NCBI GenBank assembly: GCA_046290465.1
Contig: JBKAGP010000001.1
Span: 3,584,001 to 3,648,000, forward strand
DNA length: 64,000 nucleotides
DNA from: Planctomycetota bacterium
GTDB lineage: Bacteria > Planctomycetota > UBA1135 > UBA2386
Direction: 5' to 3'
Both the position numbers and the translations under genes were made by a program. Positions 41,951 to 63,850 of the stretch are shown here, piece by piece; the stretch's first letter is position 1, and each line of letters opens with the position of its first letter. The notes under the pieces are model-generated. The model had not been told where the DNA came from, did not search any database, and saw only the letters and a list, made by a program, of their open reading frames with translations.

Positions 41951-43396
41951 CTAGCGGCCGACGCAGAACAGCTTCTCGTTGGTCCGGATCAGCACGTCGC
42001 CGTGCGCGACGACGATCGACGAACGGATGTGGTCGTCGTCGTCGCTGCCCATCGCGACCTGGTGCGTGACCTTGCCGCTCTCGGCGTCGAGCACGATGAC
42101 CAGGCCGTTGTGGTCGATGCACCAGACGCGGCCGTCGGCGACCGTCGGGCTGGCGCGCCACAGGTGGTCCTTGGGCATCGGCGTCGTCCACAGCACCTCA
42201 CCGTCCGTGGCGCGCACGCGCGAGATCGCCGAGCGCACGTCGCTGAGCACGAAGAAGCAGCCGTCGTGGAAGGCCGGCGTCGGCACGTCGCTCGACACCG
42301 GGTTGGGGCGGCCGCCGCTCTTCCAGACCATCGCGTCGTCGTCCAGCTCGCCGGAGCCGCCGAGCCGCACCGCGTAGACCGGCGCGCGCTTCGGCGCACA
42401 GACCAGCGCGAGTCCGTCGCCGACGACGACCGACGGCACCAGCCGCCAGAACCGTTCGCGGTGGCCTTCGTTCCAGGTGCCCCAACGCCACAGCTCCTTG
42501 CCGGTCTTCGGATCGTGGCCGGTGATGACGTCCCCGCCGACCAGCAGCATCTCCTCGCGGCCGCCTTCGCCGACGAACGGGATCATCGTCGTGTCGGACT
42601 CGAGCGACTCGACCTGGGCCGGCGACGGACGCACGTGGCGGAACACGTTCTTGCCGGTCTTGACGTCGACGGCGAGCACGAACGACTCGATCGGCTCGGG
42701 CTGCTTGGCGGCGGCCGCCTCCTGCGCCTGCTTGCCGCGACCGCGTCGGCCACCGCCCGGACGACCGCGACGGATCGGCACGTCGCGCTGCAGCACCGGC
42801 AGGTAGACCAGGCCCTCGCGGTAGGTCGGGCTCGCCGCGAACGTCCAGTTGAACGCGAAGTTGCCGTAGTCCTGCTGGATGTTGCGGCGCCACAGCTCCT
42901 CGCCGGCGAAGTCGTAGGCGACCAGGTCGCCGTTGCCGAAGAAGAACACCACCCGCTGCCCGTCCGAGACCGGCGACGGCGACGCGTAGGTCGCGCGGGT
43001 GCGGGCGCCGCGCGCGATCCGCGTGCCCTGCTCGGTCGGCTTGTAGCCGCTGCCCGCGTCGCGCTGCCAGACGACCTCGCCGGTCTTACGATCGAGGCAG
43101 ATCGCGACCAGCCGTTCGCGCGCGCTGTCGACCGAGGTCACGAACACGCGGTCGCCGAGCACGATCGGCGTGCTGGCGCCGGGACCGGGCATCGTCGCCG
43201 CCCAGCGCACGTTCTGTTCGGGGCCGAACGCCTGCGGCAGCTCCTTCGCTTCGGACGCGCCGTTGTAGTGCGGGCCGCGCCAGTGCGGCCAGTCCTGCGC
43301 GACGACCGGAGCGGACAGGGCGCCGAGCAGCGTTCCGAACAGGGCGACGGCGAGAGGGGCGACGGCGAGAGGGAGACGGATGGAGGCGTGTGGCAT
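41951..43396 (-). CDS. Exported PQQ-type (BamB-like) beta-propeller protein
   Basis: Signal peptide ending VVA-Q, DWPHWRGP, repeated SP(x)n..D.KTG...W blades. Confidence 0.9.
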   Translation of the reverse strand: MPHASIRLPLAVAPLAVALFGTLLGALSAPVVAQDWPHWRGPHYNGASEAKELPQAFGPEQNVRWAATMPGPGASTPIVLGDRVFVTSVDSARERLVAICLDRKTGEVVWQRDAGSGYKPTEQGTRIARGARTRATYASPSPVSDGQRVVFFFGNGDLVAYDFAGEELWRRNIQQDYGNFAFNWTFAASPTYREGLVYLPVLQRDVPIRRGRPGGGRRGRGKQAQEAAAAKQPEPIESFVLAVDVKTGKNVFRHVRPSPAQVESLESDTTMIPFVGEGGREEMLLVGGDVITGHDPKTGKELWRWGTWNEGHRERFWRLVPSVVVGDGLALVCAPKRAPVYAVRLGGSGELDDDAMVWKSGGRPNPVSSDVPTPAFHDGCFFVLSDVRSAISRVRATDGEVLWTTPMPKDHLWRASPTVADGRVWCIDHNGLVIVLDAESGKVTHQVAMGSDDDDHIRSSIVVAHGDVLIRTNEKLFCVGR

Positions 43397-43442
43397 GGTC
43401 TGCTCCGCGGAGAATACAGGTCGATGGCACCCGTGGTCCGGC

Positions 43443-44687
43443 TCAGGACCCCGTCGCCACCTCGTCGTCGAACATCTGCTGGATCTGCTCGATCACGCCG
43501 ATCGCCTCGTCGGTGTCGACGATGCCGGTCAGCATGTCGACCAGCCCCTGGCGGTGGGCCTCGACCTTGGACAGCTCGCCGAAGCGGAAGTCCTCGGTGT
43601 AGAACGCGCGCACCAGCGGCAGGAAGCGGTCGAACGCGACCTGCCACTCGCCCGATCGGCCCTGCAGGTCCGGATGCCGGGCGTCCCCCGCGAGCGCGCA
43701 GGTGACCTCGAGCGCGAGGATCTCGGCCGATCGCGCCGACAGCAGCAGGCCGGTCGAGTAGACGGGATCGATGAAGCCGAGCGCGTCGCCGATCAGCGCC
43801 CAGCCCGGACCCCCGTCGCGTTCGGCGCGGTACGAGAAGTCGCGCGCGACCCGGACCTCGCCCGACAGCCTGGCGTCGACGAGACGTTCCTTGAGGTGCG
43901 GGCAGCGGTCGATCGCCGCCTGCAGGATCTCGTCGCGGTTCTGGCCGAACCGCAGGATCTCGCGCGCCGAGGTGACCAGGCCGATGCTGACGACGCCGGG
44001 CAGCGGGATGAACCAGATCCACGAACGCGCGTCGAGGCGGAAGATCAGCGTCGAGCCGGCGTCGATGCCGGGATCGAGCCGCACGCCCTCGTAGTGCGCG
44101 TAGACGGCGGTGTTCTCGAGGCCCGGCACGCCGACCTGGCGGCTCAGTTCGCGCGGGATCACGCCCTTCTGGCCGGATGCGTCGAGCACGACGCGCGCCG
44201 ACACGACCTCTTCGCTCTCGTCGAGCCGCCGCACCCGCACACCGGTCGCAGTCTCCCCTTCGAGGCAGACGTCGACGACCGGCGTATCGGTCTCGACTTG
44301 CGCGCCGGCCTCGCGCGCGGTGTCGAGCAGCATGCGATCGAAGTCGCTGCGCAGCACCTGCCAGGTGTGATGCATGCGCTGGTCGCGGACCTCGGAGAAG
44401 TAGAACGGCCGGCTCGGGCCGTTGGGCCCGTAGAACTGCACGCCGTGCTTCTGCGGGAAGCCGAGCTCGTCCATGCGCGCGCGCACGCCGAGCTTGTCGA
44501 GCGCCAGGTTGACGGCCGGTACCAGCGACTCGCCGACGTGGAAGCGCGGGAACGCCTGGCGCTCGAACAGACCGACGCGATGGCCGGCGCGCGCCAGCAG
44601 GGTGGCGGCGGTGGCGCCGGCGGGACCGCCGCCGACGACGACGACATCGAAGCTCTTCTCGGACTCAGTCACGTGCCGCTGCATCAT
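43443..44687 (-). CDS. Flavin-dependent halogenase-like enzyme (phenolic/pyrrole type)
   Basis: VVGGGPAG, FPRFHVGESL, GFPQKHG (catalytic-Lys position), WIWFIP (WxWxIP), GDALGFIDPVYSTG (FxxPxxSxG). Start is ATG 44687/44684 or GTG 44672. Confidence 0.82.
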   Translation of the reverse strand: MMQRHVTESEKSFDVVVVGGGPAGATAATLLARAGHRVGLFERQAFPRFHVGESLVPAVNLALDKLGVRARMDELGFPQKHGVQFYGPNGPSRPFYFSEVRDQRMHHTWQVLRSDFDRMLLDTAREAGAQVETDTPVVDVCLEGETATGVRVRRLDESEEVVSARVVLDASGQKGVIPRELSRQVGVPGLENTAVYAHYEGVRLDPGIDAGSTLIFRLDARSWIWFIPLPGVVSIGLVTSAREILRFGQNRDEILQAAIDRCPHLKERLVDARLSGEVRVARDFSYRAERDGGPGWALIGDALGFIDPVYSTGLLLSARSAEILALEVTCALAGDARHPDLQGRSGEWQVAFDRFLPLVRAFYTEDFRFGELSKVEAHRQGLVDMLTGIVDTDEAIGVIEQIQQMFDDEVATGS

Positions 44688-44814: not shown

Positions 44815-46119
44815 ATGGCCTCCGAATCCGACACGAAGACCGGCAACTACTTCGTCGCCAACTACCCGCCGTTCTCGACGTGGCGCGTCGAGGACGCGCA
44901 CGTCGCGACCGACCGCCTCGCACGGCCGCCCGCCGCCGGCACGCCGTTCGGCCTCTACGTGCACATCCCGTTCTGCAGGAAGCGGTGCGACTTCTGCTAC
45001 TTCCGGGTCTACACCGACAAGAACGCGAGCGCGGTGCACCGCTACCTCGACGCGGTCGTCGACGAGGCGCGCAGGCACGCCGAGCAGGCGGCGGTGCGCG
45101 GGCGCAAGCCGGAGTTCGTCTACTTCGGTGGCGGCACGCCGTCGTACTTGTCCGTCGACCAGCTGACCCGCCTGTTCGACGGCCTGCAGCAGCACCTGCC
45201 GTGGGACGGCGCCAAGGAGATCACGTTCGAGTGCGAGCCCGGCACGCTGCAGGAGCAGAAGATCCACGCGCTGAAGGACATGGGCATCACCCGCCTGAGC
45301 CTCGGCGTCGAGAACTTCGATCCGGACATCCTCGAGCGCAACAACCGCGCCCACCGCGCCAAGGAGATCGACCGCGCCTACGGCTTCGCGCGGCAGGCCG
45401 GCTTCCGGCAGATCAACATCGACCTGATCGCCGGCATGATCGGCGAGACCGACGACAACTGGCGTCGCTGCATCGAGCGCACGCTCGAGCTCGAGCCGGA
45501 CAGCGTGACGATCTACCAGATGGAGATCCCGTTCAACACGACGGTCGCGCGCCGGATGAAGGACGACCAGCAGGAGGTCGCGCCGGTCGCCGACTGGGAC
45601 ACCAAGCGTCGCTGGGTCGACGAGGCGTTCGCGGCGCTCGAACGGGCCGGCTACCGCGTCGGCAGCGCCTACACGGCCTCGCGCGGGGACCAGGCGACGT
45701 TCGAGTACCGCGACGGCCTGTGGCACGGCGCCGACCTGCTCGGCCTCGGCGTCGCGTCGTTCGGCCACATCGGCGGCGTGCACTACCAGAACGTGCACGA
45801 CTTCGATCCCTACCTCGAACGGGTCGAGTCCGGCGCGCTGCCGGTGCACCGCGCGCTGCAGCTCACCGACGACCAGCGGCTGATCCGTGAGTTCATCCTG
45901 CAGCTCAAGCTGGGCTCGGTCGACACGCGACCGTTCGTCGAGAAGTTCGGCGTCGATCCGCTGCAGCGCTTCGCAGCACCGCTGCGAAAGCACCAGGACG
46001 ACGGCTACCTGCGCGTCGACGGCCCGCGCGTCGAGCTGGCGCGGCACGGCCTGCTGCAGGTCGACCGGCTGCTGCACGACTTCTTCCCCGAGGAGCACCG
46101 CGCGGTGCGCTACGCCTGA
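44815..46119 (+). CDS. HemN-like radical SAM enzyme (class C methyltransferase / coproporphyrinogen oxidase superfamily)
   Basis: LYVHIPFCRKRCDFCYF (CxxxCxxC), YFGGGTPS, ITFECEP, RLSLGVE, NIDLIAG, LGLGVAS. Confidence 0.88.
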   Translation: MASESDTKTGNYFVANYPPFSTWRVEDAHVATDRLARPPAAGTPFGLYVHIPFCRKRCDFCYFRVYTDKNASAVHRYLDAVVDEARRHAEQAAVRGRKPEFVYFGGGTPSYLSVDQLTRLFDGLQQHLPWDGAKEITFECEPGTLQEQKIHALKDMGITRLSLGVENFDPDILERNNRAHRAKEIDRAYGFARQAGFRQINIDLIAGMIGETDDNWRRCIERTLELEPDSVTIYQMEIPFNTTVARRMKDDQQEVAPVADWDTKRRWVDEAFAALERAGYRVGSAYTASRGDQATFEYRDGLWHGADLLGLGVASFGHIGGVHYQNVHDFDPYLERVESGALPVHRALQLTDDQRLIREFILQLKLGSVDTRPFVEKFGVDPLQRFAAPLRKHQDDGYLRVDGPRVELARHGLLQVDRLLHDFFPEEHRAVRYA

Positions 46120-46122
46120 GCC

Positions 46123-46545
46123 ATGGCGCACCGCTTCGCGATGACGCGCCGGGTCACGTTCGCCGAGACCGACATGGCGGGCATCCTGCACTTCTCCAAC
46201 TACTTCCGCTACATGGAGGAGACCGAGCACGCGTTCTTCCGTTCGCTCGGCTTCCAGGTGCACGCGTGCGAGCAGAGCGGCGCCTGGGGCTGGGCGCGGC
46301 GCAACGCTTCGTGCGACTACCAGCGTCCGCTGCGCTACGAGGACGAGGTCGAACTGCAGCTGACGGTCAAGGAGAAGCGCAGCAAGGCGCTGGTCTACGA
46401 GGTGCGGTTCGTGCTCGACGGCGAGCTGGCCGCGCAGGGCGAACTGACCGCGGTGTGCGTCGAGAAGGGGCCGGACGGCCGGCTGCGCGCCGCCGAGATG
46501 CCGGCCGTGGTGGCTGCGGCGATCGACGTCGCTCCGTTGACATGA
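46123..46545 (+). CDS. Hotdog-fold acyl-CoA thioesterase (4HBT/YbgC family)
   Basis: RVTFAETDMAGILHFSNYFRYMEE, CDYQRPLRYED. Confidence 0.9.
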   Translation: MAHRFAMTRRVTFAETDMAGILHFSNYFRYMEETEHAFFRSLGFQVHACEQSGAWGWARRNASCDYQRPLRYEDEVELQLTVKEKRSKALVYEVRFVLDGELAAQGELTAVCVEKGPDGRLRAAEMPAVVAAAIDVAPLT

Positions 46546-46671: not shown

Positions 46672-48963
46672 ATGAAACGACGCACCTCCACGCTGGCCGC
46701 CGTCCTCGGCGCCGCGCTCGCGCTCCCGCTCGCCCTGCTCCCGACCGGCTGCGGCACGACCCCGGACATCGAGACCGGCAGCTTCGCCGCGCACGGCTGG
46801 CTGAGCTGGCGAGGCCCCGAACAAAACGGCCGCTCGCGCGAGACCGGCCTGCCCGAGCCCGCCGACGTCGACGGCAACAAGCCGACCTGGCGCTACGACC
46901 TCAGCGGTCGCGGCACGCCGGTGATCGCCAACGGCCGCGTCTACACGATGGGCTACGAGGGCGAGGGCAAGGAGCTCGAGGAGGTGCTGGTCTGCCTCGA
47001 CGAGAACACCGGCGAGCGGATCTGGGAGCAGCGCTTCCAGCACTTCTTGACCGACATCATCTACTACCGCTTCGCGATCGGCAGCCCGACGATCGACGCC
47101 GCGACCGGCAACGTGTTCTGCATCACGTCGGCCGGCCTTCTCTGCTCGTTCACCGCCGACGGTGAGCTGCGCTGGCAGCACGCGCTCGGCGCCGAGTACG
47201 GCCGGCTGGTGTTCCCCAACGGCCGCACCGGCGCGGTCGCGCTGACCGACGAACACGTCGTGCTGCACATGACGACGTCCGGCTGGGGCCCGCAGGGGCC
47301 GGCGCGCGGCCGCTTCTTCGCGTTCGACAAGGACGACGGCGCGTCGGCGTGGACGTCGACGCCGGGCGGACCGCCGAAGGACATCTCGTTCTCGCTGCCG
47401 GTCGTCGAGCAGCGCGGCGGCCGCCTGCTCACCTACGCCGGCCTGTCCGGCGGCCACATGACCTGCGTCGACGCCCGCACCGGCGACGCGCTGTGGCGCT
47501 TTCCGATGTGCACCGGCGGCATGAGCTCGAGCGCCGTGCTCTACAAGGACACGCTGATCGCGATCCACGGCAAGGAGAACCTCGACTCGTCGACCGCCGG
47601 CCGCATGGTCGCGATCAAGCTCGGCGCGCTGCCGGGCAAGGACGGCAAGCAGCTGGTGCTCGGCGCCGAACACGAGAAGTGGCGCAACCACCTGACCGCG
47701 TTCACCAGTTCGCCGGTGCTGGTCGACGACCGCGTCTACACGACCATCGCGACCGGCGAGCTCGCCTGCGTCAACGCCGACACCGGCGAGGTGCTGTGGG
47801 AGCACAAGCTGGCGCCCGACCAGATCCACGCCTCGCCGGCGTTCGGTGACGGTCTGCTGTGGGTGCCGATGAACAACGGCTCGCTGTTCGTGATCCGGCC
47901 GACCGATGCGGCCGCCGAAGTGCTCACCGAGACGACGCTCGAAGGCAACTGCCTCGGCGCGCCGGCGATCTGCAACGGCCGCGTCTACGTGCACACGACC
48001 AAGGCGCTCTACTGCTTTGCGGGGGAAGGCTCGCAGCAAGCGCCGCCGGCGATCCCGGCGCCGACCGTCGACGCCACCCTTGGTGCGGCGACGCGGCTGC
48101 AGGTGCTGCCGGCCGACGTGCTGGTGCGCACCGGCGAGACCATCCAGTTCCGCGCGCGCAGCCTCGACGCCGACGGCAACACCGTCGCCGACCCGGTCGC
48201 GGGCGCGATCGAGTGGACCGGCAAGCTGACCGACGGCATGCGCATCGACGCCGCTGGCAAGCTGACGATCGCGGCCGACGCGACCCCGACGGCGCTGGTG
48301 CTGAAGGCGTCCTCGGGCGGCGTCACCGGCACCGCGCGCGTGCGCGTCGTGCCGAGCGCGCCCTACACCGACGACCTCGAGGACGTCGCGCTGCAGCCGC
48401 ACCCGAAGGAGGATGGCGTGAACTTCGCGTTCCCGCGGGCGCACTGGATCAGCGCCAGGCTCAAGTGGGAGGTGCGCGAACGCGACGGCAACAAGGTGCT
48501 CGCGCGCACGCTCGACCAGCCGCTGTTCCAGCGCACGATCTCGATGATCGGCGCGCCCGACATGGCCAACTACACCATGCAGGTCGACGTGATGACCGAC
48601 GGCAACCGCCGCATCATGTCGACGCCGGGAATGGTCAACCAGCGCTACCTGATCCTGCTCAAGGGCAACCACCAGGCGCTCGAGATCACCTCCAACGAGG
48701 AGCTGCTGAAGGAGCGCGTCAAGTTCCGCTGGAAGCCCAAGGTCTGGTACCGGATGAAGAGCCGGGTCGACGTCGCGCCCGACGGCAGCGGCGTCGTGCG
48801 CGCCAAGGCCTGGCAACGCGACGAGCCCGAGCCGGACGGCTGGCTGCTGGAGGTCGAGGTGCCGCGCGCCAATCGCAGCGGCTCCCCCGGCATCTACGGC
48901 TTCACCCCCCAGAGCCGCTTCCGCTGCTACGTCGACAACATCGTGGTGACCCCCAATGACTGA
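46672..48963 (+). CDS. Lipoprotein PQQ-type beta-propeller with Ig-like and C-terminal beta-sandwich domains
   Basis: MKRR...LLPTGC lipobox-like signal, WLSWRGP, propeller repeats, C-terminal KPKVWYRMK...AKAW..DEPEP..W. Confidence 0.85.
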   Translation: MKRRTSTLAAVLGAALALPLALLPTGCGTTPDIETGSFAAHGWLSWRGPEQNGRSRETGLPEPADVDGNKPTWRYDLSGRGTPVIANGRVYTMGYEGEGKELEEVLVCLDENTGERIWEQRFQHFLTDIIYYRFAIGSPTIDAATGNVFCITSAGLLCSFTADGELRWQHALGAEYGRLVFPNGRTGAVALTDEHVVLHMTTSGWGPQGPARGRFFAFDKDDGASAWTSTPGGPPKDISFSLPVVEQRGGRLLTYAGLSGGHMTCVDARTGDALWRFPMCTGGMSSSAVLYKDTLIAIHGKENLDSSTAGRMVAIKLGALPGKDGKQLVLGAEHEKWRNHLTAFTSSPVLVDDRVYTTIATGELACVNADTGEVLWEHKLAPDQIHASPAFGDGLLWVPMNNGSLFVIRPTDAAAEVLTETTLEGNCLGAPAICNGRVYVHTTKALYCFAGEGSQQAPPAIPAPTVDATLGAATRLQVLPADVLVRTGETIQFRARSLDADGNTVADPVAGAIEWTGKLTDGMRIDAAGKLTIAADATPTALVLKASSGGVTGTARVRVVPSAPYTDDLEDVALQPHPKEDGVNFAFPRAHWISARLKWEVRERDGNKVLARTLDQPLFQRTISMIGAPDMANYTMQVDVMTDGNRRIMSTPGMVNQRYLILLKGNHQALEITSNEELLKERVKFRWKPKVWYRMKSRVDVAPDGSGVVRAKAWQRDEPEPDGWLLEVEVPRANRSGSPGIYGFTPQSRFRCYVDNIVVTPND

Positions 48964-50521
48964 TCTGACCCTGCGTGGCGTCGCGGCGCTGCTGATCGCC
49001 CCCGCCCTCCTCTCCTCGCTCGCGTCGGCCCAGGACTGGCCGATGTGGGGCCGCAACGCGACCCGCAACATGGTCGCCGACGTCAAGGGACTGCCGCTCG
49101 ACATCGTGCCCGGCGAGTTCGCCGACGACAGCGAGGACATCGACATCACGACGTCCAAGAACGTCAAGTGGATCGCCAAGCTCGGCTCGCAGAGCTACGG
49201 CAACCCGACCGTCGCCGACGGCCGCGTCTACGTCGGCACCAACAACGACGTGCCGCGCGACGACCGCTTCCAGGGCGACCGCAGCTGCGTCTACTGCCTC
49301 GACGAGAAGACCGGCGAGCTGATCTGGCAGCTCAACGTTCCCAAGCTCGGCACCGGCAAGGTCAGCGACTGGGAGTTCCTCGGCATCTGCAGTTCGCCCT
49401 GCGTCGACGGCGATCGCGTCTACCTGGTGACCAACCGCTGCGAGGTCATGTGCGTCGACGTCAACGGCTTCAAGGACGGCAACCAGGGCTTCCAGGACGA
49501 GGCCAAGTACTACGCCGACAACGGCAAGCCACCGGTCAAGGTCAACGAGAAGACCGACGCCGACATCATCTGGAAGATGAACATGATCGACGAGTGCGGC
49601 GTGTTCCCGCACAACATCACCAGCTGCTCGGTGATGGTCGTTGGCGACCAGATCTGGACCTCGACGTCCAACGGCGTCGACTACGGCCACGTCGAGACGC
49701 CGGCCCCGAACGCGCCGTCGCTGATCGTCGTCGACAAGAAGACCGGCAAGCTGATCGGCGAGGAGGCCTCGGGCCTCAGCCAGAACATCTTCCACAGCAA
49801 CTGGTCGTCGCCCGCCTACCTGAAGGCCGATGACACCGAGCTGGTGATCTTCGGCGGCCCGGACGGCGTGCTCTACGCGTTCGATCCGAAGCCGGTGAAG
49901 GACGAGGACGGCTTCCTGGTGCTGAAGGAGGCGTGGAAGTACGACTGCAACCCGAAGGCCTACCGCGTCAAGGAGGACGGTTCGCCGCGCAAGTACGCGA
50001 CCGCCAAGGGACCGAGCGAGGTGCTGGCGACGCCGGTCGTCTACGACGGCCACGCCTACGCCCTGATCGGCCAGGACCCGGAGCACGGCGAAGGTGTCGG
50101 CAACCTCGTCTGCCTCGACCGCAACGGCAAGCAGGTCTGGTCGTTCGGCGAGATCCACCGCTCGATCTCGACGCTGTCGATCACCGACGGCCTGGTGTTC
50201 GCCGCCGACTACTCGGGCTACCTCTACTGCATCGACGCCAAGACCGGCGAGAAGTGCTGGCAGTACGACACCAGCGCGCACATCTGGGGCTCGACGCTGG
50301 TCGCCGACGGCCGCGTCTACGTCGGCATCGAGGACGGCTTCCTGGTCAGCGCGCCGGCGACGCGCGCGTTCGACAAGAAGAACGTCAAGGAGATCGACTT
50401 CGCGGTCCCGATCTACAGCTCGCCGATCGCGGCGAACGGCGTGCTCTACATCGCGACCCACACCCACCTGTTCGCCATCGCCAAGGGCGCCGGCGCGGCC
50501 GGGGACGACGGCGGCAAGTGA
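48956..50521 (+). CDS. Exported Cys/acid-rich PQQ-type beta-propeller protein
   Basis: Signal ASA-Q, DWPMWG, propeller repeats, GQDPEHGEG; overlaps the upstream stop by 8 nt. Confidence 0.88.
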   Translation: MTDLTLRGVAALLIAPALLSSLASAQDWPMWGRNATRNMVADVKGLPLDIVPGEFADDSEDIDITTSKNVKWIAKLGSQSYGNPTVADGRVYVGTNNDVPRDDRFQGDRSCVYCLDEKTGELIWQLNVPKLGTGKVSDWEFLGICSSPCVDGDRVYLVTNRCEVMCVDVNGFKDGNQGFQDEAKYYADNGKPPVKVNEKTDADIIWKMNMIDECGVFPHNITSCSVMVVGDQIWTSTSNGVDYGHVETPAPNAPSLIVVDKKTGKLIGEEASGLSQNIFHSNWSSPAYLKADDTELVIFGGPDGVLYAFDPKPVKDEDGFLVLKEAWKYDCNPKAYRVKEDGSPRKYATAKGPSEVLATPVVYDGHAYALIGQDPEHGEGVGNLVCLDRNGKQVWSFGEIHRSISTLSITDGLVFAADYSGYLYCIDAKTGEKCWQYDTSAHIWGSTLVADGRVYVGIEDGFLVSAPATRAFDKKNVKEIDFAVPIYSSPIAANGVLYIATHTHLFAIAKGAGAAGDDGGK

Positions 50522-52310: not shown

Positions 52311-53359
<1,049 letters not shown>

Positions 53360-53363
<4 letters not shown>

Positions 53364-55942: not shown

Positions 55943-57972
55943 GGATCCTGCCGTTCGTCACCGTGCTGGTGCTCGCCGGCACCGCGCTGGTCGCCCAGCG
56001 CATGCGGCTCGACGCCTCGGGTGCGTTCTTCACCAGCAACCCGGCCAGCACCGCCGAAGAGCGACCGCTGGTGACGTTCGATGCCGGCGCCATCACGCCG
56101 TCGATGCTCGCCGATTTCGGCGGCGCGCGGACCGGGCCGCGCATCCTCGAGAACCTCGCGTTCGCGATGGCCCTGGCGCGCGAATGCGAGGCCCGCGGGC
56201 TCGCCCGCAGCGCCCCGACCCTGGCCCGCTCCGAGGTCGCGCAGCAGACCGTCGGCGACCAGCCGTTCGATCCGGAGACCCGTGCCCGCCTCGCGACCGA
56301 GGCCCTGCGCGACCTGCGCATGGTCGCGCTGATCGGCGAACAGCGCGCCAGGGACGAGGACGCGCTGCGCGAGCTGTTCGAGCACCGATACGGCAAGGGC
56401 GGCGTGCGCGTGCGGGTCCGCCACGTGCTCAGCACCGACCGGATGTCGGCGCCGCAGACGGCCGGCGAGCGAGCCGCGGCGCTGCGCGCCACGCTGCAGA
56501 CCGGCGCGACCTTCGACGACCTGCTGGCGAAGTCGCACGACCGCGTCACCCGCCGGCTGCTGCGCGATCCGCAGCGCCGCGCCGAGGCCGGCCTGCTGCC
56601 CAACTACAACTACCATCGCTACGGCGAGGCGTTCGCCCGAGCGGTGCGCGCGCTCGAGGTCGGCGAGGTCTCGCAACCGGTCTCGTCGTCGGTCGGCGTG
56701 CACCTGATCGAACTGCTCGACCGCACCACGACGCAGCTCGCAGACGTGCGCACCGAGCTGGTCCGACAGCTCGCCGGCGGCAAGGCGCGCAGCGCCGAGA
56801 TCCTGCAGCTGCGCCAGCGCCTGCTCGCCAAGTACGGCTACCAGGCGCCTGCCGCCGTCGCCCGCAAGCGCACCCCCGTCGCGGACCTCGGTCCGCCGCC
56901 GTCGACCGAGTGGCCGCACTATCGCGGCAACCCGCAGCTGCACGGTGTCTCGGCGGCACGACTCGGCGACCAGCCGACGCTCGCGTGGCGGTTCGACACC
57001 GCCGGCGACATCCTGTCGTCGCCGGTGATCGCCAACGGCCTGGTCTACATCGGTTCGACCGACAACTTCGTCTATGCGATCGACCTGAAGACCGGCGAGC
57101 AGCGCTGGAAGTTCGAGACCAAGGACATGGTCGAGGCGCCGCCGCTGGTCGTCGACGGCCGCGTGTTCGTCGGTTCGTCGGACTTCTTCTTCTACGCGCT
57201 CGACGCCGCCGGCGGCGGGCTGCTGTGGAAGTACGAGACCCAGGACCGGATCCTCGGCGGCGCCAACTGGTTCCGCAGCCAGAACGGCAAGACGCGCGTG
57301 CTGGTCGGCAGCTACGACGCCAACGTCTACTGCTTCGACGTGCACGGCGGCGATCCGCTGTGGACCTACGCGACCGACAACTACGTCAACGGCTCGCCGG
57401 CGATCGCCGGCCGCGAGACGCTGTTCGGCGGCTGCGACGCCGCGCTGCACCTGGTCGACCTCGAGAGCGGCGAACGCGTCGCCAAGGTCGAGCTCGGTGA
57501 GGGCTGCCAGGTCGCCGGCTCGGTCGCGCTGCTCGGCGACCGCGCCTACTTCGGCCACTACGGCAACGAGTTCCTGCGCGTCAACCTCGACGACGGCAAG
57601 GCCGAGTGGCGCTACGCGAGCAAGCGGCAGGGCTTCTGCTCGTCGCCGGCGGTCGGCGAGAAGTACGTCGTGTTCGGCGGCCGCGATCGCCACCTGCACT
57701 GCGCGCTGCGCGCCGACGGCACCCCGCAGTGGCAGTTCCGCACCAGGCGCAAGGTTGACGCGTCGCCGGTGATCTGCGGCGACAAGGTCGTGTTCGGTTC
57801 GGGCGACGGCCGCCTCTACGTGCTGCGGCTCGCGACCGGCGAGAAGGTCTGGAGCTACGACATCGGCAAGCCGATCTACTCGTCGCCGGCGGTCGTCGAC
57901 GACATGATCGTGGTCGGCGCCGGCGACCAGCGCGTCTACGCGTTCCGCGCTCCCGCAGGAGGCGGCAGGTAG
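55939..57972 (+). CDS. Exported parvulin/PpiC-like domain fused to a PQQ-type beta-propeller
   Basis: GTG start (GTGA overlap), signal peptide, VRVRHVL...TFDDLLAKSHD...F..AV..LEVGEVSQPV.S..GVHLI, then EWPHYRG and regular SSP.V/GS.D blades. Confidence 0.82.
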   Translation: MRILPFVTVLVLAGTALVAQRMRLDASGAFFTSNPASTAEERPLVTFDAGAITPSMLADFGGARTGPRILENLAFAMALARECEARGLARSAPTLARSEVAQQTVGDQPFDPETRARLATEALRDLRMVALIGEQRARDEDALRELFEHRYGKGGVRVRVRHVLSTDRMSAPQTAGERAAALRATLQTGATFDDLLAKSHDRVTRRLLRDPQRRAEAGLLPNYNYHRYGEAFARAVRALEVGEVSQPVSSSVGVHLIELLDRTTTQLADVRTELVRQLAGGKARSAEILQLRQRLLAKYGYQAPAAVARKRTPVADLGPPPSTEWPHYRGNPQLHGVSAARLGDQPTLAWRFDTAGDILSSPVIANGLVYIGSTDNFVYAIDLKTGEQRWKFETKDMVEAPPLVVDGRVFVGSSDFFFYALDAAGGGLLWKYETQDRILGGANWFRSQNGKTRVLVGSYDANVYCFDVHGGDPLWTYATDNYVNGSPAIAGRETLFGGCDAALHLVDLESGERVAKVELGEGCQVAGSVALLGDRAYFGHYGNEFLRVNLDDGKAEWRYASKRQGFCSSPAVGEKYVVFGGRDRHLHCALRADGTPQWQFRTRRKVDASPVICGDKVVFGSGDGRLYVLRLATGEKVWSYDIGKPIYSSPAVVDDMIVVGAGDQRVYAFRAPAGGGR

Positions 57973-57976
57973 CGCG

Positions 57977-59281
57977 ATGCGCCTGATGCTGCTGACGCCG
58001 GGCACCGGCCACTTCTTCTGCGGCAGCTGCCTGCGCGACGACGCGCTCGGCAACGCGCTGCGACAGCAGGGACACGATGCCACCAACGTGCCGCTCTACC
58101 TGCCGATGGTGCTCGAGCGTCCCGACGACCATCCGGTCCCGGTGCACATGGGCGGGATCAACGTCTACCTGCAGCAGAAGGCGCGCATGTTCCGCCATCT
58201 GCCGCGCTTCGTCGCCAACTGGCTCGACAGCCCCAGGCTGCTGCGCTGGGTGGCGAGCCGCAGCAGCATGACCGACGCCAGCGACCTCGGCGCGATGACC
58301 GTGTCGATCCTGCGCGGCGAGTGCGGCAAGCAGGAGAAGGAGATCGACAAGCTGGTGGCGTGGATCGGCACACAGCCGCGCCCCGACGTCGTCATCGTCT
58401 CCAACGCGATGCTGACCGGCGTCGTGCGGCGCCTGCGCGACGCCCTCGGCGTGCCGGTGATGGTGACGCTGCAGGGCGAGGCGCCGTTCTTGGACGCGCT
58501 GCCGCCGCAGGACCGCGACGCGGCGTGGCAGACGCTGCGCGAACGCGCCGGCGAGGTCGACGCGCTGGTCGCCGTCAGCGCCGACTACCGCGACGAGATG
58601 CAGGCGCGCCTGCAGGTCGACCCCGACCGGCTGCACGTGGTGCACAACGGCATCGACCTGAGCGGCTTCGACGACGAGGCCGCACCGCCGTCCGGACGCA
58701 CGCCGCCGACGATCGGCTACCTGGCGCGCATGTGCCGCGACAAGGGCCTCGACACGCTGGTCGACGCGTTCGTCCGCCTGCGCTCCGACGCGCGCTTCCC
58801 GCAGCTGCGCCTGCGCGTCGCCGGGGTGCAGCTCGCCGAGGATCGCGCCTACGTCGAGCAACTGCAGCAGCGGCTGCAGGCCGCTGGCTGCCTCGACGAC
58901 GCCGAGTTCCTGCCGAACATCGACCGCGCGCAGAAGCTGACGTTCTTGCGTTCGCTGACGGTGATGTCGGTGCCGGCGCGCTACGGCGAGTCGTTCGGCC
59001 TCTACCTGCTCGAGGCGATGGCGGCCGGCGTGCCGGTCGTGCAGCCGCGCCACGCGGCGTTCCCCGAGGTGCTCGACGCGACCGGCGGCGGCCTGCTGTG
59101 CGAACCGGAGGACCCGGCGTCGCTCGCTGCGGGCCTCGCCGAAGTGCTGTCCGACCCGCAGCACGCCGACCGGCTCGGCAGCCGCGGCCGCGAGGCCGTG
59201 CGCGAGCGCTTCACGTCCGCCCACATGGCTGCCAACGTCACCCGCATCTGCGAAGCCCTCGCAGCCGCCCGCTCGACCTGA
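57977..59281 (+). CDS. GT4-family (GT-B) glycosyltransferase with N-terminal CxxC
   Basis: PGTGHFFCGSCLRD, VVHNGID, KGL, ESFGLYLLEAMAAGVPVV. Confidence 0.9.
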   Translation: MRLMLLTPGTGHFFCGSCLRDDALGNALRQQGHDATNVPLYLPMVLERPDDHPVPVHMGGINVYLQQKARMFRHLPRFVANWLDSPRLLRWVASRSSMTDASDLGAMTVSILRGECGKQEKEIDKLVAWIGTQPRPDVVIVSNAMLTGVVRRLRDALGVPVMVTLQGEAPFLDALPPQDRDAAWQTLRERAGEVDALVAVSADYRDEMQARLQVDPDRLHVVHNGIDLSGFDDEAAPPSGRTPPTIGYLARMCRDKGLDTLVDAFVRLRSDARFPQLRLRVAGVQLAEDRAYVEQLQQRLQAAGCLDDAEFLPNIDRAQKLTFLRSLTVMSVPARYGESFGLYLLEAMAAGVPVVQPRHAAFPEVLDATGGGLLCEPEDPASLAAGLAEVLSDPQHADRLGSRGREAVRERFTSAHMAANVTRICEALAAARST

Positions 59282-59322
59282 GCGAACTTGCGCCCAATCC
59301 CGACCGCACCGAGACTCCCCCC

Positions 59323-59847
59323 ATGCAGACCTGGATCCTGTTCGCGCTCCTCACCGTCGCCTCGTGGGGCATCTACGGCGTGCTGCTGCACAGCGGCCAG
59401 GTCGCGATGAGCGACCCGCAGAACGGCCGCTACAAGGCGTTCTTCTGGGTCGGCATCGCCTACTTCCTGATCGCGGTGCTGGCGCCCGCCGGCATGCTGC
59501 TGGCGGCGAAGGCCTCGTGGTCGATGCCGTCCAAGGCGATCTGGCTGTCGCTGTTCGCCGGGGTCGTCGGCGCCGTCGGCGCGTTCGGCGTGCTGCTCGC
59601 GTTCGGCGCCAAGGGCCACCCGGCCGCGGTGATGTCGATCATCTTCGCCGGCGCACCGATCGTGAACGCGTTCGTCGCGATGTCGCTGCACCCACCCAAG
59701 GGCGGCTGGGGCAGCCTCGACTGGCGCTTCCTGCTCGGCATCGCCCTGGCCGCGACCGGCGGGCTGCTGGTCAGCCTCTACAAGCCCGCGCCCGGCGGCG
59801 CCAAGCCGGCCGGCCAGCCACCGAGCCAGCAGAACGCGCCGAAATGA
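59323..59847 (+). CDS. Small DMT/EamA-like membrane protein
   Basis: ATG 59323; five hydrophobic helices, WGIYG, AGVVGAVGA, FAGAPIVN. Confidence 0.72.
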   Translation: MQTWILFALLTVASWGIYGVLLHSGQVAMSDPQNGRYKAFFWVGIAYFLIAVLAPAGMLLAAKASWSMPSKAIWLSLFAGVVGAVGAFGVLLAFGAKGHPAAVMSIIFAGAPIVNAFVAMSLHPPKGGWGSLDWRFLLGIALAATGGLLVSLYKPAPGGAKPAGQPPSQQNAPK

Positions 59848-60551
59848 GCGCACCGCTGGTCGAACTGCGCGGGATCACCCGTCGCTTCGGTGCGACGACC
59901 GAAGTGCTGCGCGGGATCGATCTCGAGGTCGCCGCGGACGACACGCTGGCCGTGCTCGGCCCGTCCGGCTGCGGCAAGAGCACGTTGCTGCACATCCTCG
60001 GCGGGCTGCTGCCGCCCACCAGTGGCACCGCGCGCTTCGACGGCCGCGACCTCGCGACGATGTCGGCGACCGAACTGGCCGCGCTGCGCAACCGCGAGAT
60101 CGGCTTCGTGTTCCAGGCGCACCACCTGCTGCCGCAGTGCACCGCGCTCGAGAACGTGCTGGTGCCGACCCTCGTGCACCCCAAGGACGACGCGCGCCGC
60201 TCTGCCGAGTCGCGTGCCCGCGAGCTGCTCGCCGACGTCGGCCTCGGCCAACGCCTCGACCACCGCCCGGCGCAGCTGTCCGGAGGCGAGCAGCAGCGCG
60301 TCGCGGTCGTGCGCGCGCTGATCAACCGGCCGCGGCTGCTGTTGGCGGACGAGCCGACCGGCTCGCTCGATGAGGCGGGCACCGACCTGCTCGGCGACCT
60401 GCTGTGCTCGCTCAACGAGAAGCACCGGGTTGCGGTCGTGACGGTCACCCACTCGCCGCGGCTGGCCCGGCGCATGCGGCGCGTGGTCGAGCTGCACGCA
60501 GGCCGCCTGCGCCGCGCCGACGACGCCCGCGCGGCGGACACGGCCGGATGA
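59844..60551 (+). CDS. ABC transporter ATP-binding protein (LolD/MacB type)
   Basis: GPSGCGKS, IGFVFQ, LSGGEQQR, LLADEPTG, VTH; ATGA overlaps on both sides. Confidence 0.96.
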   Translation: MSAPLVELRGITRRFGATTEVLRGIDLEVAADDTLAVLGPSGCGKSTLLHILGGLLPPTSGTARFDGRDLATMSATELAALRNREIGFVFQAHHLLPQCTALENVLVPTLVHPKDDARRSAESRARELLADVGLGQRLDHRPAQLSGGEQQRVAVVRALINRPRLLLADEPTGSLDEAGTDLLGDLLCSLNEKHRVAVVTVTHSPRLARRMRRVVELHAGRLRRADDARAADTAG

Positions 60552-63500
60552 GCTCCTGGAGCCTGATCGCGCGCGGCCTCGCGCACCACTGGCGCACGCA
60601 CGTCGGCGTCGTGCTCGGCGTGCTGGTCGCGACCGCGGTGTTGGCCGGCGCGCTGATCGTCGGCGACTCGGTGCGCGCCAGCCTGCGCCGCCAGGCCCTG
60701 CAGCGCATCGGCCGCTTCGACAGCGTGCTCGCCTGCGGCGACCGCTTCGTCACCGCCGACCTCGCGCGACGCATCGAGGCCGGACTCGGTGCGACCACCT
60801 GCGCGGCGCTGCAGCTGCCGGGGGTCGCCAACCGCGGGGACGGCAACGCGCGCACCGGCATCGTCGACGTGTTCGGCGTCGACGACACGTTCTTCGCGAT
60901 GAGCACGCGCGGCGTCGCCCGCCCGGCACCGGCACCTCGCCACGCGCTGCTCAACCGGCAGCTGGCCGAACAGCTCGGCGTGCAGCCCGGTGACGAGATC
61001 GTGCTGCGCATCGAAAAGCCCAGCCTGATGCCGCAGGAGGCGACGATGGCGACCGTCGACGACCTCGCGTTCGCGATGCGCGTCGAGATCGACGCGCTCG
61101 TCGACGACGACGAGTTCGGCCGCTTCGGCCTGCGCGCCAGCCAGGTCGCGCCGTTCGACGTGTTCGTGTCGCGCACCTGGCTCGCCGCAGAACTCGAACT
61201 CGAAGGCCACGCCAACCTGCTGCTGAGCGCGGCCGGCACGACCCGCAGTGACGAGGCCCTGCGCGCCCACTGGACGCTCGCCGACGCCGAACTCGAGCTG
61301 CGCGTCGGCGACGCCGGCAGCGAACTGCGCAGCGGCCGCGTGTTCCTCGATGCAGCGATCGTCGACGCGGCCACGGAGCTGGCTCCCGACGCGTTCGGCG
61401 TGTTCACCTACTTCGTCAACGCGCTGCAGGTCGGCGAGCGCGTCACGCCCTACTCGATGGTCTGCGGCGTCGGCCCGCTCCGTAGCGCACCGGCGACGGC
61501 TCCGCTGCGGCAGCTGATGCCGGCCACGGACGACCTGCTGATGCCCAACGCCTGGCTCGCAGACGACCTCGGCGCCGACCGCGACGACCGCGTCCGGCTG
61601 CGCTACTACGTGATGAACGAGCAGCTGCAGCTCGAGGAACGCGAGCACGAACTGCGGATCGGCCGCGTCGTGCCGCTGGTCGGCGTGGCCGCCGACCCGA
61701 CGCTGATGCCCGAGTTCCCCGGACTGGCCGAGGCGCGTAGCTGCACCGACTGGGAGCCGGGCGTGCCGGTCGAGCTCGACCAGCTCGACGACCGCGACCA
61801 GCAGTACTGGGACGAACACCGCGGCACGCCCAAGGCGTTCGTGTCGCTGGCGACCGCGCGCTCGCTGTGGGCCAATCGGTTCGGCACGCTGACGGCGATC
61901 CGCGTGCCCGCAGGTCCCGACGCCGAACGGCTCGCGCAGCTGCCGCGCCGGCTCTTGCCCGAATCGGTCGGCCTGTTCTTCCAGGACCTGCGCGGCCCCG
62001 CGCTCGCTGCCGCCGCACCCGCGACCGACTTCGGCGCGCTCTACCTCGGCCTCAGCTTCTTCCTGATCGTCGCGGCGCTGCTGCTGACCACGCTGCTGTT
62101 CGTGTTCGGCATCGAGCAGCGCGCCGGCGAGGTCGGCACGCTACTGGCGGTCGGCTACGAGCCACGGCAGGTGCGCAGCCTGTTCGTGCGCGAGGCGCTG
62201 CTGCTCGCGTGCGTCGGCGCGGCGCTCGGCACGTTCGCCGGCATCGGCTACGCCGACGGCGTGCTCGCCGGCCTCGCCACGCTGTGGCAGGACACCGCCC
62301 GGCAGGCGGCGCTCTCGGCCCACGTCGAACCCGGCTCGCTCTTGACCGGCGCAGCAGTCACGATCCTGGCCGCGATGGTCGCGATCTGGTGGACGCTGCG
62401 CGCGACCGCGCGGCGACCGGCCGTCGAGCTGCTGGCGACCCGCGGCGGCCTGGAGGCCGCCTCGACCGATCCCGCCAGCGCACGCCGACGGCTGTGGACC
62501 AGCAGCCTGGTCGCCGCGTTGGCGGCCACGGGCGCGCTGACGCTGGCGCTGCGCGCCGACCCGTGGCGGGCGACCAGCGCGTTCTTCGGCGGCGGCGCGC
62601 TGCTGCTGGTCGCGTCGCTCGCGGCGTGCCGTGCGCTGCTGGCGCGCCTCGGTGCCGGTCCACGTCGGCCGATCGCGACGGTCGCGGCGCTCGGCCTGCG
62701 CAGCGCCAGCCGACGGCCGGGGCGCAGCCTCGCGTCGATCGCGCTGCTCGCGAGCGGCGCCTTCCTGGTGCTGGCGATCCAGGCCAACCGGCTCGCGCCG
62801 CCGCAGGACCCGACCGAACGCACCTCCGGCACCGGCGGCTTCGCGCTGTTCGGTCGCTCGACGCTGCCGGTGTTGCGCGACCTCGCGACCGAGGCGGCGC
62901 GCGACGCCTACGCGCTCGACTCAAGAACGCTGCGGGACGTCGACGTCGTGCCGCTGCGGCTGCGGCCCGGCGACGACGCCAGCTGCCTCAACCTCGCCAC
63001 CGCCCAGAACCCACAGCTGCTCGGCGTGCTGCCGGAACGGCTCGCCCGGCGCGGTGCGTTCCGCTTCACCCGCGCGATCGACGGCGCGTCGGTCGACGAC
63101 GGCTGGACGCTGCTCGAACGGGACCTCGGTCCGAACGTCGTGCCGGCGATCGGCGACGGCGGCAGCGTCGCCTGGGCGCTGCACAAGAAGGTCGGCGACT
63201 CGCTGCGCTACCGCGACGAGAACGGCGAGGAGTTCGACGTGCGCATCGTCGCCACCGTCGCCGACTCGATCCTGCAGGGCAACCTGCTGATCGCCGACCG
63301 CCACCTGCGCGCGCGCTTCCCTTCAGCGTCGGGCTTCCGCATGTTCCTCGTCGATGCGCCCGCGCAGCGCGCCGACGAGGTCGCGCGCGACCTGAGCGAC
63401 GCGCTGTCCGACATCGGCCTCGAACTGACGCCGACCGGCCAGCGGCTCGCGTCGTTCCAGTCGGTGCAGAACACCTACCTGTCGATCTTCCAACTGCTCG

Positions 63501-63850
63501 GCGGCCTCGGCTTGTTGCTCGGCACGGTCGGCCTCGGCGTCGTCGTGATGCGCAACGCACTCGAACGCCGCAGCGAACTCGCGGTCGCGCGCGCGCTCGG
63601 GTTCTCCGACGGCGCCGTGCGGCGACTGGTCTGGAGCGAGCACGCGCTGCTGCTGGCCCTCGGCCTGTTGGCCGGAACCGCCGCCGCCTCGATGGCCATG
63701 ATCCCGGCGCTGCGCGACGGCCGGGACCTGCCGCTCGGGTCGTCGGCCCTGCTGCTCGGCGCACTCGCCGCGAGCGGCGCGTTCTGGGTCTGGCTGGCCA
63801 GCCGCCTCGCCACCCGCGGCCCGCTGCTCGACCGGCTGCGCGGCGACTGA
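60548..63850 (+). CDS. Large duplicated FtsX/MacB-type ABC permease
   Basis: Two FtsX-like halves (EQRAGEVGTLLAVGY; ERRSELAVARALGF) with large periplasmic loops. Confidence 0.9.
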   Translation: MSSWSLIARGLAHHWRTHVGVVLGVLVATAVLAGALIVGDSVRASLRRQALQRIGRFDSVLACGDRFVTADLARRIEAGLGATTCAALQLPGVANRGDGNARTGIVDVFGVDDTFFAMSTRGVARPAPAPRHALLNRQLAEQLGVQPGDEIVLRIEKPSLMPQEATMATVDDLAFAMRVEIDALVDDDEFGRFGLRASQVAPFDVFVSRTWLAAELELEGHANLLLSAAGTTRSDEALRAHWTLADAELELRVGDAGSELRSGRVFLDAAIVDAATELAPDAFGVFTYFVNALQVGERVTPYSMVCGVGPLRSAPATAPLRQLMPATDDLLMPNAWLADDLGADRDDRVRLRYYVMNEQLQLEEREHELRIGRVVPLVGVAADPTLMPEFPGLAEARSCTDWEPGVPVELDQLDDRDQQYWDEHRGTPKAFVSLATARSLWANRFGTLTAIRVPAGPDAERLAQLPRRLLPESVGLFFQDLRGPALAAAAPATDFGALYLGLSFFLIVAALLLTTLLFVFGIEQRAGEVGTLLAVGYEPRQVRSLFVREALLLACVGAALGTFAGIGYADGVLAGLATLWQDTARQAALSAHVEPGSLLTGAAVTILAAMVAIWWTLRATARRPAVELLATRGGLEAASTDPASARRRLWTSSLVAALAATGALTLALRADPWRATSAFFGGGALLLVASLAACRALLARLGAGPRRPIATVAALGLRSASRRPGRSLASIALLASGAFLVLAIQANRLAPPQDPTERTSGTGGFALFGRSTLPVLRDLATEAARDAYALDSRTLRDVDVVPLRLRPGDDASCLNLATAQNPQLLGVLPERLARRGAFRFTRAIDGASVDDGWTLLERDLGPNVVPAIGDGGSVAWALHKKVGDSLRYRDENGEEFDVRIVATVADSILQGNLLIADRHLRARFPSASGFRMFLVDAPAQRADEVARDLSDALSDIGLELTPTGQRLASFQSVQNTYLSIFQLLGGLGLLLGTVGLGVVVMRNALERRSELAVARALGFSDGAVRRLVWSEHALLLALGLLAGTAAASMAMIPALRDGRDLPLGSSALLLGALAASGAFWVWLASRLATRGPLLDRLRGD

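Follow-up and report, generated by a model that had tools for sequence, protein, structure and literature searches.

A conserved planctomycete gene cluster with a probable role in supporting an orphan family of exported propellers in aerobes

A 64,000-nucleotide stretch of a Planctomycetota genome (assembly GCA_046290465.1, contig JBKAGP010000001.1; G000:C1:3584001-3648000, where G000 is the source genome), referred to as the window in this study, carries a cluster of genes for a flavin-dependent halogenase-like protein, a HemN-like radical SAM enzyme, a predicted two-protein carboxylate reductase (EhpF-like and EhpG-like), a GT4 glycosyltransferase, transporters and four exported beta-propellers (bpA to bpD; Table 1). 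The cluster is real, ancient and conserved, and its most plausible role is to support, in aerobes, an orphan propeller family, WRGP. It consists of a shared core (GT4, bpD and LolD/FtsX) plus an aerobic module, module A, which is interchangeable with an anaerobic iron-sulfur electron wire, module B. It is very probable, given the distribution of these genes among genomes, that module A serves the propellers and that the wire can take its place.

The relationship between module A and the propellers was examined among 201 planctomycete genomes that are at least 90% complete. A close EhpF (E below 1e-100) occurs in 42 of the 64 genomes with WRGP propellers (E up to 1e-30) and in none of the 137 without them; the 64 comprise all 42 close-EhpF genomes, none of the 19 distant-EhpF genomes, and 22 others, and 35 of the 42 have at least nine propeller matches. 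Among 201 genomes of Verrucomicrobiota, EhpF was found in 4 of 24 propeller-positive genomes (one of the four being the chosen centre) as opposed to 0 of 177 negative ones. Within the genus of the window, seven of 12 genomes have EhpF, and four of the five without it have no WRGP propeller. The fifth, G009, a 510-contig assembly, has 17 propellers together with orthologues of the radical SAM gene (split by contig ends), halogenase, thioesterase, receptor and ftsX. Thus the functional tie to the propellers proposed in the first-pass annotation of this region is strongly supported by co-occurrence, by the presence of 13 of the 15 WxxxRG propellers beside the operon, and by loss within the genus. 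The distant EhpF proteins form a subfamily of 31-36% identity, present in 19 propeller-less planctomycete genomes (G218, G162, G121, G198, G149, G187, G088, G046, G135 and ten more) that include nine of the 11 members of family f35.

Which genes travel together was determined in a panel of 80 genomes consisting of EhpF-positive, EhpF-less propeller-positive and propeller-negative groups, the last hand-picked among listed genomes without a match. The radical SAM gene was present in 41/41, 0/22 and 0/17 of these, respectively, and bpC in 42/42, 6/22 and 0/16. The halogenase was found in 42/42 EhpF genomes at E up to 1e-90, with one match of about 1e-80 in each other group, which is the level of the halogenase paralogue of G000 itself. 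GT4, however, was present in 41/41 EhpF genomes and 19/22 EhpF-less propeller genomes but in 0/17 negative ones (60/63 versus 0/17 overall). In a family represented by complete genomes, the genes lie far apart (in G055, ehpF is at 5.77 Mb and the radical SAM gene at 0.44 Mb), yet all are kept. On these counts, which hold even where the genes are scattered, EhpF, the radical SAM enzyme, the halogenase and bpC constitute a single unit, module A, and GT4 accompanies the propellers whether or not that unit is present. The importer and the exporter, which share this operon with the cytoplasmic reductase, both appear to go with module A: among scattered-gene EhpF genomes, orthologues of the DMT-type exporter were found in four of five and of the sodium:solute symporter (SSS) in three of five, and each in none of five wire genomes. 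Fisher tests gave very small p values, but related genomes are not independent and these values are not relied on.

Genomes without EhpF carry a different set of genes. A conserved wire block is present in 13 of 15 propeller-rich loci of EhpF-less verrucomicrobial genomes and absent from five planctomycete loci retrieved alongside them. It encodes an NHL-repeat protein, a 4Fe-4S ferredoxin whose N-terminus has a twin-arginine-like segment, a membrane polyferredoxin resembling NapH/MauN (E 4e-13), a membrane-anchored propeller and, in 11 loci, a protein with NuoE/NuoF/HoxU-like domains; the NapH/MauN and NuoE/NuoF/HoxU matches are all below curated cut-offs. Around the GT4 gene of EhpF-less planctomycetes, lolD was found in 14 of 17 loci (within 10 kb of GT4), bpD in eight and wire-block genes in 12. 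The NapH-like gene occurs in 20/22 EhpF-less propeller genomes, 4/42 EhpF genomes and 0/16 propeller-negative ones, and one module or the other is present in 62 of the 64 propeller genomes. The COX1 family of heme-copper oxidases was detected in 10 of 10 module-A genomes tested versus 3 of 20 wire-only genomes. The wire block spans cytoplasm, membrane and periplasm, and among its electron-transfer proteins no biosynthetic enzyme was recognised. As module A stands in for a wire made of such proteins, it most simply does the job of the wire, and this makes the first-pass option of a free novel metabolite less likely.

The wire operon is undescribed. It is found in mostly oxidase-less Verrucomicrobiota and Planctomycetota (L102-L113, L115, L121, L122-L138; e.g. 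L103:364-17960) and contains NuoEF(G)-like, NapH-like, ferredoxin and NHL proteins, propellers, GT4 and LolD/FtsX, with DUF116-polyprenyl synthase, squalene-cyclase-like, prenyltransferase-fold, second radical SAM and dicluster proteins as frequent extras. The polyprenyl synthase/squalene-cyclase-like/second radical SAM block is optional and common to both module types. It was considered as an anaerobic biosynthetic alternative and rejected, since its cyclase-like gene is present in 31/42 EhpF genomes as well as in 16/22 EhpF-less propeller genomes (0/16 negative ones) and is absent from G000.

Conservation was also evident in gene order. A scan of GTDB genomes yielded 431 stretches with an EhpF relative; the best 80 of the 431, many of them truncated, were analysed, and these are mostly titled Planctomycetota or Verrucomicrobiota, the closest EhpF relatives being Planctomycetota. 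In these 80 loci the neighbours of ehpF are ehpG (69), bpC (62), bpB (56), the iron-containing alcohol dehydrogenase (ADH) gene (54), the SSS gene (53) and bpD (35), and more rarely the radical SAM gene (25), GT4 (18), the DMT gene (18), lolD (14), the thioesterase gene (13), the halogenase gene (13) and ftsX (10). A major facilitator (MFS) transporter takes the place of the symporter in 19 loci. This conserved order is not due to chance, and the co-conservation raised in the first-pass annotation is supported. Addition of 20 loci from distant planctomycetes (100 in total) gave the fullest order: receptor, MarR, bpB, bpC, accessory protein, SSS, ehpF, ehpG, ADH, bpD, radical SAM, lyase, halogenase, GT4, thioesterase, DMT, lolD, ftsX. 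The genes are single-copy and highly conserved, EhpF being 51-92% identical across phyla. A MarR regulator is present in 12 loci, with no match in G000, and a PaaK-like ligase in 8 of the 100. One contig titled Luminiphilus (Gammaproteobacteria; L002) shows the same order with an EhpF of 91% identity, reflecting either misbinning or transfer, and in the module-A loci L013, L015 and L098 (L098:32-3621) genes for radical SAM, 4Fe-4S dicluster, CobW-like GTPase and GcvH-like proteins lie upstream of bpB. No published description of the system was found in the searchable literature, most subscription journals and bioRxiv supplements being outside its reach.

The propellers themselves are numerous. 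G000 has 15 open reading frames (ORFs) with an N-terminal WxxxRG motif, 13 of them within one 37-kb stretch (41951-78848), including nine additional propellers downstream of the operon (63914-78848 in extended numbering). The propellers of the 201 planctomycete genomes were detected with a profile built from ten generic members, with bpB, bpC and bpD left out. The WRGP family comprises 13,241 clusters at 50% identity (E up to 1e-30). Its N-terminus has an invariant Trp, Arg and Gly, and these, together with a C-terminal Arg, could be structural or anion-binding. Among 50 of 150 listed members, fusions to sulfatase, FGE-like, GDSL, malectin, LamG, beta-lactamase-like, ankyrin and FG-GAP domains were seen. 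Predicted structures of bpC (pLDDT 89) and of a generic propeller are confident eight-bladed propellers; bpC, whose alignment shows many invariant His, Glu and Asp residues, has a BamB/PQQ-like fold, and neither fold pointed to a function. In a FastTree phylogeny (93 sequences, midpoint root, clades not tested), bpD orthologues of EhpF and wire loci are intermixed in one clade (support 0.988), bpB forms its own clade, bpA groups with the downstream paralogues, and the wire block's own propellers fall in clades separate from bpB and bpC.

The predicted enzymes of module A are recognisable by their motifs. The EhpF-like protein, a stand-alone short ANL adenylating subunit of the kind found in two-component carboxylate reductases, aligns to solved EhpF over residues 10-350 (E 4e-39) and carries ETGGTTGxPK and YGNT motifs. 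A LuxCDE-type reading of this protein was rejected, its sole PDB matches being EhpF (LuxE itself was not compared). Its ehpG neighbour overlaps it by 4 bp and encodes a protein of aldehyde dehydrogenase (ALDH) fold in which the Cys of GRSC, the catalytic Cys, and HGPG are conserved in 78 sequences. ALDHs carry a Glu-bearing ELGG motif where the EhpG-like protein has HGPG, so that the general-base Glu is missing. Together with the ADH, this set fits the acid activation and reduction to an alcohol that had been proposed. The flavoprotein has GxGxxG, a catalytic Lys and WxWxIP, and the solved structures closest to it, 8zop (E 2e-65) and 3e1t, are those of halogenases, consistent with the earlier halogenase-like call and with a CndH/PltA type; NCBIfam models of the QhpG/LodB/GoxB hydroxylases match it more weakly. 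The radical SAM enzyme matches HemN (1olt) and NocN (9p2u) and has CxxxCxxC and a HemN C-terminal domain, as expected of a class C (HemN-like) enzyme distinct from housekeeping HemN/HemW; two separate radical SAM paralogues of 27-32% identity are present elsewhere in G000. Pairs of a second paralogous HemN-like enzyme (40-44%) and a halogenase occur at G078:C1:334334-336799 and G118:C10:20326-23073. The GT4 protein has a strictly conserved N-terminal PGxGxFxCGSCxRD motif (window 57977-58050), and its CxxC is unusual for the GT4 family.

As for the substrate, a gene for a putative chorismate-lyase-fold protein is present in 33 of 42 EhpF genomes, 0 of 22 EhpF-less propeller genomes and 0 of 16 propeller-negative genomes, and clustering of the remaining ORFs recovered it in 14 loci. 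A hydroxybenzoate-type substrate for the predicted reductase is therefore likely, in keeping with the (hetero)aromatic acid suggested previously. The protein has no Pfam match at 1e-4 and a PDB match to 2nwi at only E 0.008; its Atlas neighbours score 0.95-0.97, with PF01947/PF04345 on just 11-19% of members. No match to the gene was found in G000. Import of the acid, as first proposed, thus fits the source genome, but the majority of relatives are likely able to produce it on their own. An MqnA-like chorismate dehydratase gene lies within the propeller array (G000:C1:3655337-3656185; extended 71337-72185). It was rejected as a precursor source and is probably a menaquinone gene, since it is single-copy and in no other locus.

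These components suggest how module A might work. Its anatomy, with an importer, an acid reductase driven by ATP and NAD(P)H, an ADH, an exporter and bpB/bpC, would suit a redox shuttle. In most relatives the putative chorismate-lyase-fold protein would supply a 4-hydroxybenzoate-type acid, which in G000 would be imported via the TonB-dependent receptor and the symporter; the halogenase (probably acting on a thioester), the HemN-like enzyme and the thioesterase would tailor it once, giving the carrier. EhpF would adenylate the carrier, EhpG would reduce it to the aldehyde and the ADH to the alcohol, at a cost of ATP and NAD(P)H, and the DMT protein would export the reduced form. In the periplasm, bpB/bpC would re-oxidise the carrier, passing the electrons on to activate or drive client propellers, and the symporter would bring the acid back in. 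Where heme-copper oxidase is lacking, NuoEF(G), the NapH-like membrane protein, and exported ferredoxin plus propellers would perform this task, in that order. The shared core would act as a separate arm that synthesises a glycosylated ligand or anchor, exports it and loads it. A shuttle of this kind, running on a halogenated 4-hydroxybenzoate-type acid and serving the propellers, is our tentative preference, at a little under even chances. The fuller proposal is more doubtful, namely that aerobic Planctomycetota and Verrucomicrobiota cycle a halogenated, radical-SAM-tailored hydroxybenzoate as an ATP-charged acid/alcohol shuttle in place of an oxygen-sensitive wire, and so power a propeller family of more than 13,000 clusters that also needs a glycosylated cofactor.

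Several observations weigh against the shuttle or against the strength of the distribution behind it. The steps of the shuttle, and the enzymes, metabolites and transport it would use, are all predicted from genes alone, and to our knowledge EhpF/GriC pairs act in one-way biosynthesis. The client fold model matches YxaL, Rv3035, BamB and tetrathionate hydrolase best (Z 33-37), with quinoprotein dehydrogenases behind them at Z 29-31, so fold comparison does not directly demonstrate that the clients are redox enzymes; bpB and bpC have no recognised cofactor site, and none of 50 long WRGP members scanned is fused to a cytochrome c. Both modules occur together in four genomes and bpC in six wire genomes, the oxygen split may be no more than a consequence of the O2 need of the halogenase, and among the five EhpF genomes examined for transporters the symporter orthologue was not found in two and the DMT orthologue in one. 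Two propeller genomes (G031 and G040) have neither module nor GT4. Lastly, the counts overstate independence, because the genomes are related, up to nine propeller candidates were scored per genome and the 16-17 controls were hand-picked.

The same genes can be read as a one-way synthesis, in which a halogenated, methylated hydroxybenzyl alcohol would be glycosylated by GT4, then exported and loaded into the propellers by LolD/FtsX and bpD as a substitute for pyrroloquinoline quinone (PQQ); anaerobes would salvage an equivalent or make it otherwise, and their loaded enzymes would use the wire as electron sink. The enzyme set does read as linear, all genes stand in a single operon in several lineages, and this reading fits the operon order as well as the shuttle does and the same co-occurrence with propellers. 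TonB receptors are seen in loci of both module types, making salvage possible, and the NCBIfam 'acido-empty-quinoprotein' model weakly matches bpB, bpC and bpD. However, GT4, bpD and LolD/FtsX are kept in genomes without EhpF, radical SAM enzyme and lyase, where the halogenase is at most at paralogue level (19 of 22 such genomes for GT4). For this reason the acceptor of GT4 is probably not the EhpF/EhpG/ADH product, and the linear route from acid to alcohol to glycoside in the first-pass annotation is not supported. Moreover, no conserved replacement biosynthetic genes specific to EhpF-less genomes were seen, the prenyl/cyclase block being in both types, and an importer beside a complete de novo route would be superfluous. 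We regard one-way cofactor synthesis as rather unlikely.

If the product were instead a secreted metallophore, signal or defence compound, recaptured via the TonB receptor and symporter, with propellers binding it or its metal, then the receptor, importer, exporter and the MarR regulator would be accounted for, and the fold neighbour Rv3035 has been solved in complex with FecB. One planctomycete makes 3,5-dibromo-p-anisic acid, which has been ascribed, though not on genetic evidence, to the joint action of a chorismate lyase and a brominase (bioRxiv 10.1101/723874). The brominase, BaaB, is reported there to be 44% similar to Bmp5, whereas our flavoprotein is nearest to the CndH/PltA type, a separation that rests on the description of BaaB. 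Secretion would leave both the substitution by an electron wire and the tie to a protein family of about 13,000 clusters unexplained, and appears improbable. Hardly probable is a catabolic or detoxifying role for module A (on an environmental haloaromatic released by the propellers) or a role in tailoring envelope glycolipids, the link to the propellers being a shared lifestyle. It would agree with the sulfatase, GDSL, malectin, LamG and beta-lactamase-like domains fused to propellers, with the missing lyase gene of G000 and with the PimA/PimB lipid mannosyltransferases among GT4 relatives, but synthesis is indicated by the putative lyase fold, the halogenase motifs and the HemN-like enzyme, and single-copy, highly conserved genes lost together with the propellers inside one genus speak against it.

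Re-examination of ORFs and translations substantiated all 16 genes originally described at the locus and their junctions: 14 plus-strand genes (44815-63850) and a divergent halogenase-like gene (44687-43443) and propeller (43396-41951). Genes are coupled by ATGA (50768, 59844, 60548), TTGA (53360) and GTGA (55939) junctions, an 8-bp overlap at 48956 and TAG/ATG abutting at 54799/54800. Their family assignments hold in Pfam and NCBIfam scans, the DUF3311 and EamA matches being under curated cut-offs, and, as had been noted, no polyketide synthase, nonribosomal peptide synthetase or terpene synthase family was matched by the 16 proteins. The boundaries first drawn (41951-63850) enclose the right genes but are too narrow, as the TonB receptor and nine downstream propellers lie outside them. 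Orthologues of the receptor (45-52% identity) were found in 12 of 80 loci by tblastn and in 11 by ORF clustering; in same-genus G009 the orthologue (64%) adjoins bpA, and in the wire-type locus L124 it is 49% identical. An FG-GAP repeat protein gene (39067-41640, plus strand) lies between receptor and bpA in the window and is probably an insertion, since it is lacking at that position in G009. Directly upstream of the receptor is a gene for a 476-residue multi-pass membrane protein (35135-36565, plus strand) without a Pfam match. GC content is uniform throughout the window (about 70%), hence nothing in base composition hints at a recent import of the region. A search for operon promoters found no sigma-70-like promoter and one terminator-like match, fewer than in shuffled sequences, and was uninformative.

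Table 1. Features of the cluster and its surroundings (window positions).
Feature	Position	Strand	Evidence and assignment
TonB-dependent receptor	36611..38881	+	Pfam PF00593/PF07715; predicted outer-membrane uptake; syntenic member
bpA, WRGP-type 8-bladed propeller, exported	41951..43396	-	PF13360; N-terminal hydrophobic segment; generic, presumed client
Flavin-dependent halogenase-like, CndH/PltA type	43443..44687	-	GxGxxG, Lys80, WIWFIP; module A
HemN-like (class C-type) radical SAM enzyme	44815..46119	+	CxxxCxxC at residue 54; module A
4HBT/YbgC hot-dog thioesterase	46123..46545	+	PF13279; 13/80 loci; module A
bpB, propeller with lipoprotein-like signal (LPTGC) and extra C-terminal domains	46672..48963	+	56/80 loci, conservation; dedicated, module A
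bpC, exported propeller, candidate periplasmic enzyme	48956..50521	+	Invariant His/Glu/Asp; dedicated, module A
DUF3311-like small membrane partner of symporter	50529..50771	+	PF11755 E 1e-5, below cut-off; 36/80 loci
Sodium:solute symporter (SSS), predicted importer	50768..52300	+	PF00474; module A
EhpF/GriC-like adenylating subunit, predicted two-protein carboxylate reductase	52311..53363	+	PDB EhpF 3l2k E 4e-39; module A
EhpG/GriD-like ALDH-fold reductase subunit, TTG start	53360..54799	+	PF00171; conserved GRSC, HGPG; module A
Iron-containing alcohol dehydrogenase (ADH)	54800..55942	+	PF00465; 54/80 loci; module A
bpD, exported propeller fused to parvulin peptidyl-prolyl isomerase domain here	55939..57972	+	PF13570 + PF00639; shared core, candidate carrier or chaperone
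GT4 glycosyltransferase with conserved N-terminal CGSC motif	57977..59281	+	PF00534; shared core
Five-helix DMT/EamA-like transporter, predicted exporter	59323..59847	+	PF00892 E 0.002, below cut-off; 5 hydrophobic segments; module A
LolD-like ABC ATPase	59844..60551	+	TIGR02211 E 6e-73, below cut-off; shared core
Double FtsX/MacB-type permease	60548..63850	+	Two PF02687 stretches; shared core
First of nine further WRGP propellers	63914..64000, array to 78848 extended numbering (G000:C1:3647914-3662848)	+	Presumed clients

The WRGP family, very large and still unexplained, is usually annotated as BamB-like or PQQ-like; the locus names genes on which these propellers depend and reveals an exchange of aerobic and anaerobic modules, similar in kind to that of FGE and anSME for sulfatases. 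Propeller function is now testable, as GT4 and EhpF are each single-copy. If the shuttle is true, primary metabolism would include roles for a flavin halogenase and for a radical SAM enzyme of class C, and a new carrier or cofactor would be indicated.

By the comparisons applied here, which are of sequences and neighbourhoods, the cluster does not belong to the phenazine, grixazone, PQQ or BamB systems. It resembles the D-alanylgriseoluteic acid operon of Enterobacter/Pantoea agglomerans Eh1087 in its EhpF-type match and the adjacent ALDH-fold partner, but differs from the ehp and gri systems in being joined to an iron-containing ADH, importer, exporter, halogenase, radical SAM enzyme and exported propellers, the likeness to GriC/GriD and EhpG being by description. 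According to the accessible parts of the reports, GriC adenylates and GriD reduces 3-amino-4-hydroxybenzoate for grixazone in Streptomyces griseus (PMC10179220), and EhpF-O turn phenazine dicarboxylate into a hydroxymethyl product (PMC3175449). Phenazine or grixazone core genes (PhzA/B-G, GriH/GriI) were not found among the 16 genes or the conserved neighbours of the 100 loci, the rest of the genome not being searched. Chorismate-lyase-like and flavin halogenase genes are adjacent in the canonical form of our operon, as are baaA-baaB of Planctomycetales strain 10988, for which the available part of the source gives a two-gene model, not genetically tested, for 3,5-dibromo-p-anisic acid (bioRxiv 10.1101/723874). 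These genes may be related to module A, although BaaB is likened there to Bmp5, and the reductase, radical SAM enzyme, GT4, transporters and propellers are not discussed in that part.

In its working alone, the proposed shuttle is analogous to that of cysteine/cystine in E. coli, which has an exporter (YdeD/EamA, a DMT-family protein) and importers (FliY-YecSC, YdjN). There, as far as the accessible text goes, the reduced form is exported and the oxidised form re-imported, supplying periplasmic reducing power (PMC4383340). The importer and reductase of our system are not homologous to those, and it would use a tailored aromatic compound, be ATP-driven and serve a protein family rather than peroxide removal. 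Module B shares domains, all below curated cut-offs, with NapH/MauN/NosR/NirI/RdhC-type polyferredoxins and NuoEFG/HydABC-like modules. Proteins of the NapH/MauN/NosR type supply periplasmic enzymes with electrons or bring about their maturation, and several of these enzymes are propellers. The partners of module B, however, are WRGP propellers and GT4, and no catalytic subunit for nitrate, nitrous oxide, methylamine or dehalogenation was seen among the conserved neighbours. As for the propellers, matches to the PQQ quinoprotein model TIGR03075 reached 30-71 bits against a cut-off of 480, and those to the BamB model TIGR03300 48-177 bits against 285, the fold being common to both. The propeller model aligns with PedH/MDH, yet these targets are 560-670 residues long; solved quinoprotein dehydrogenases exceed WRGP clients in length by about 150 residues, and the clients are closer to BamB/YxaL. 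No precursor peptide and no PqqA-E or Mft genes occur among the conserved neighbours, unlike in PQQ and mycofactocin systems. What the cluster does share with those systems is a PQQ-like fold and one biosynthetic set per genome for many paralogous clients, and a glycosyltransferase is also part of the mycofactocin system.

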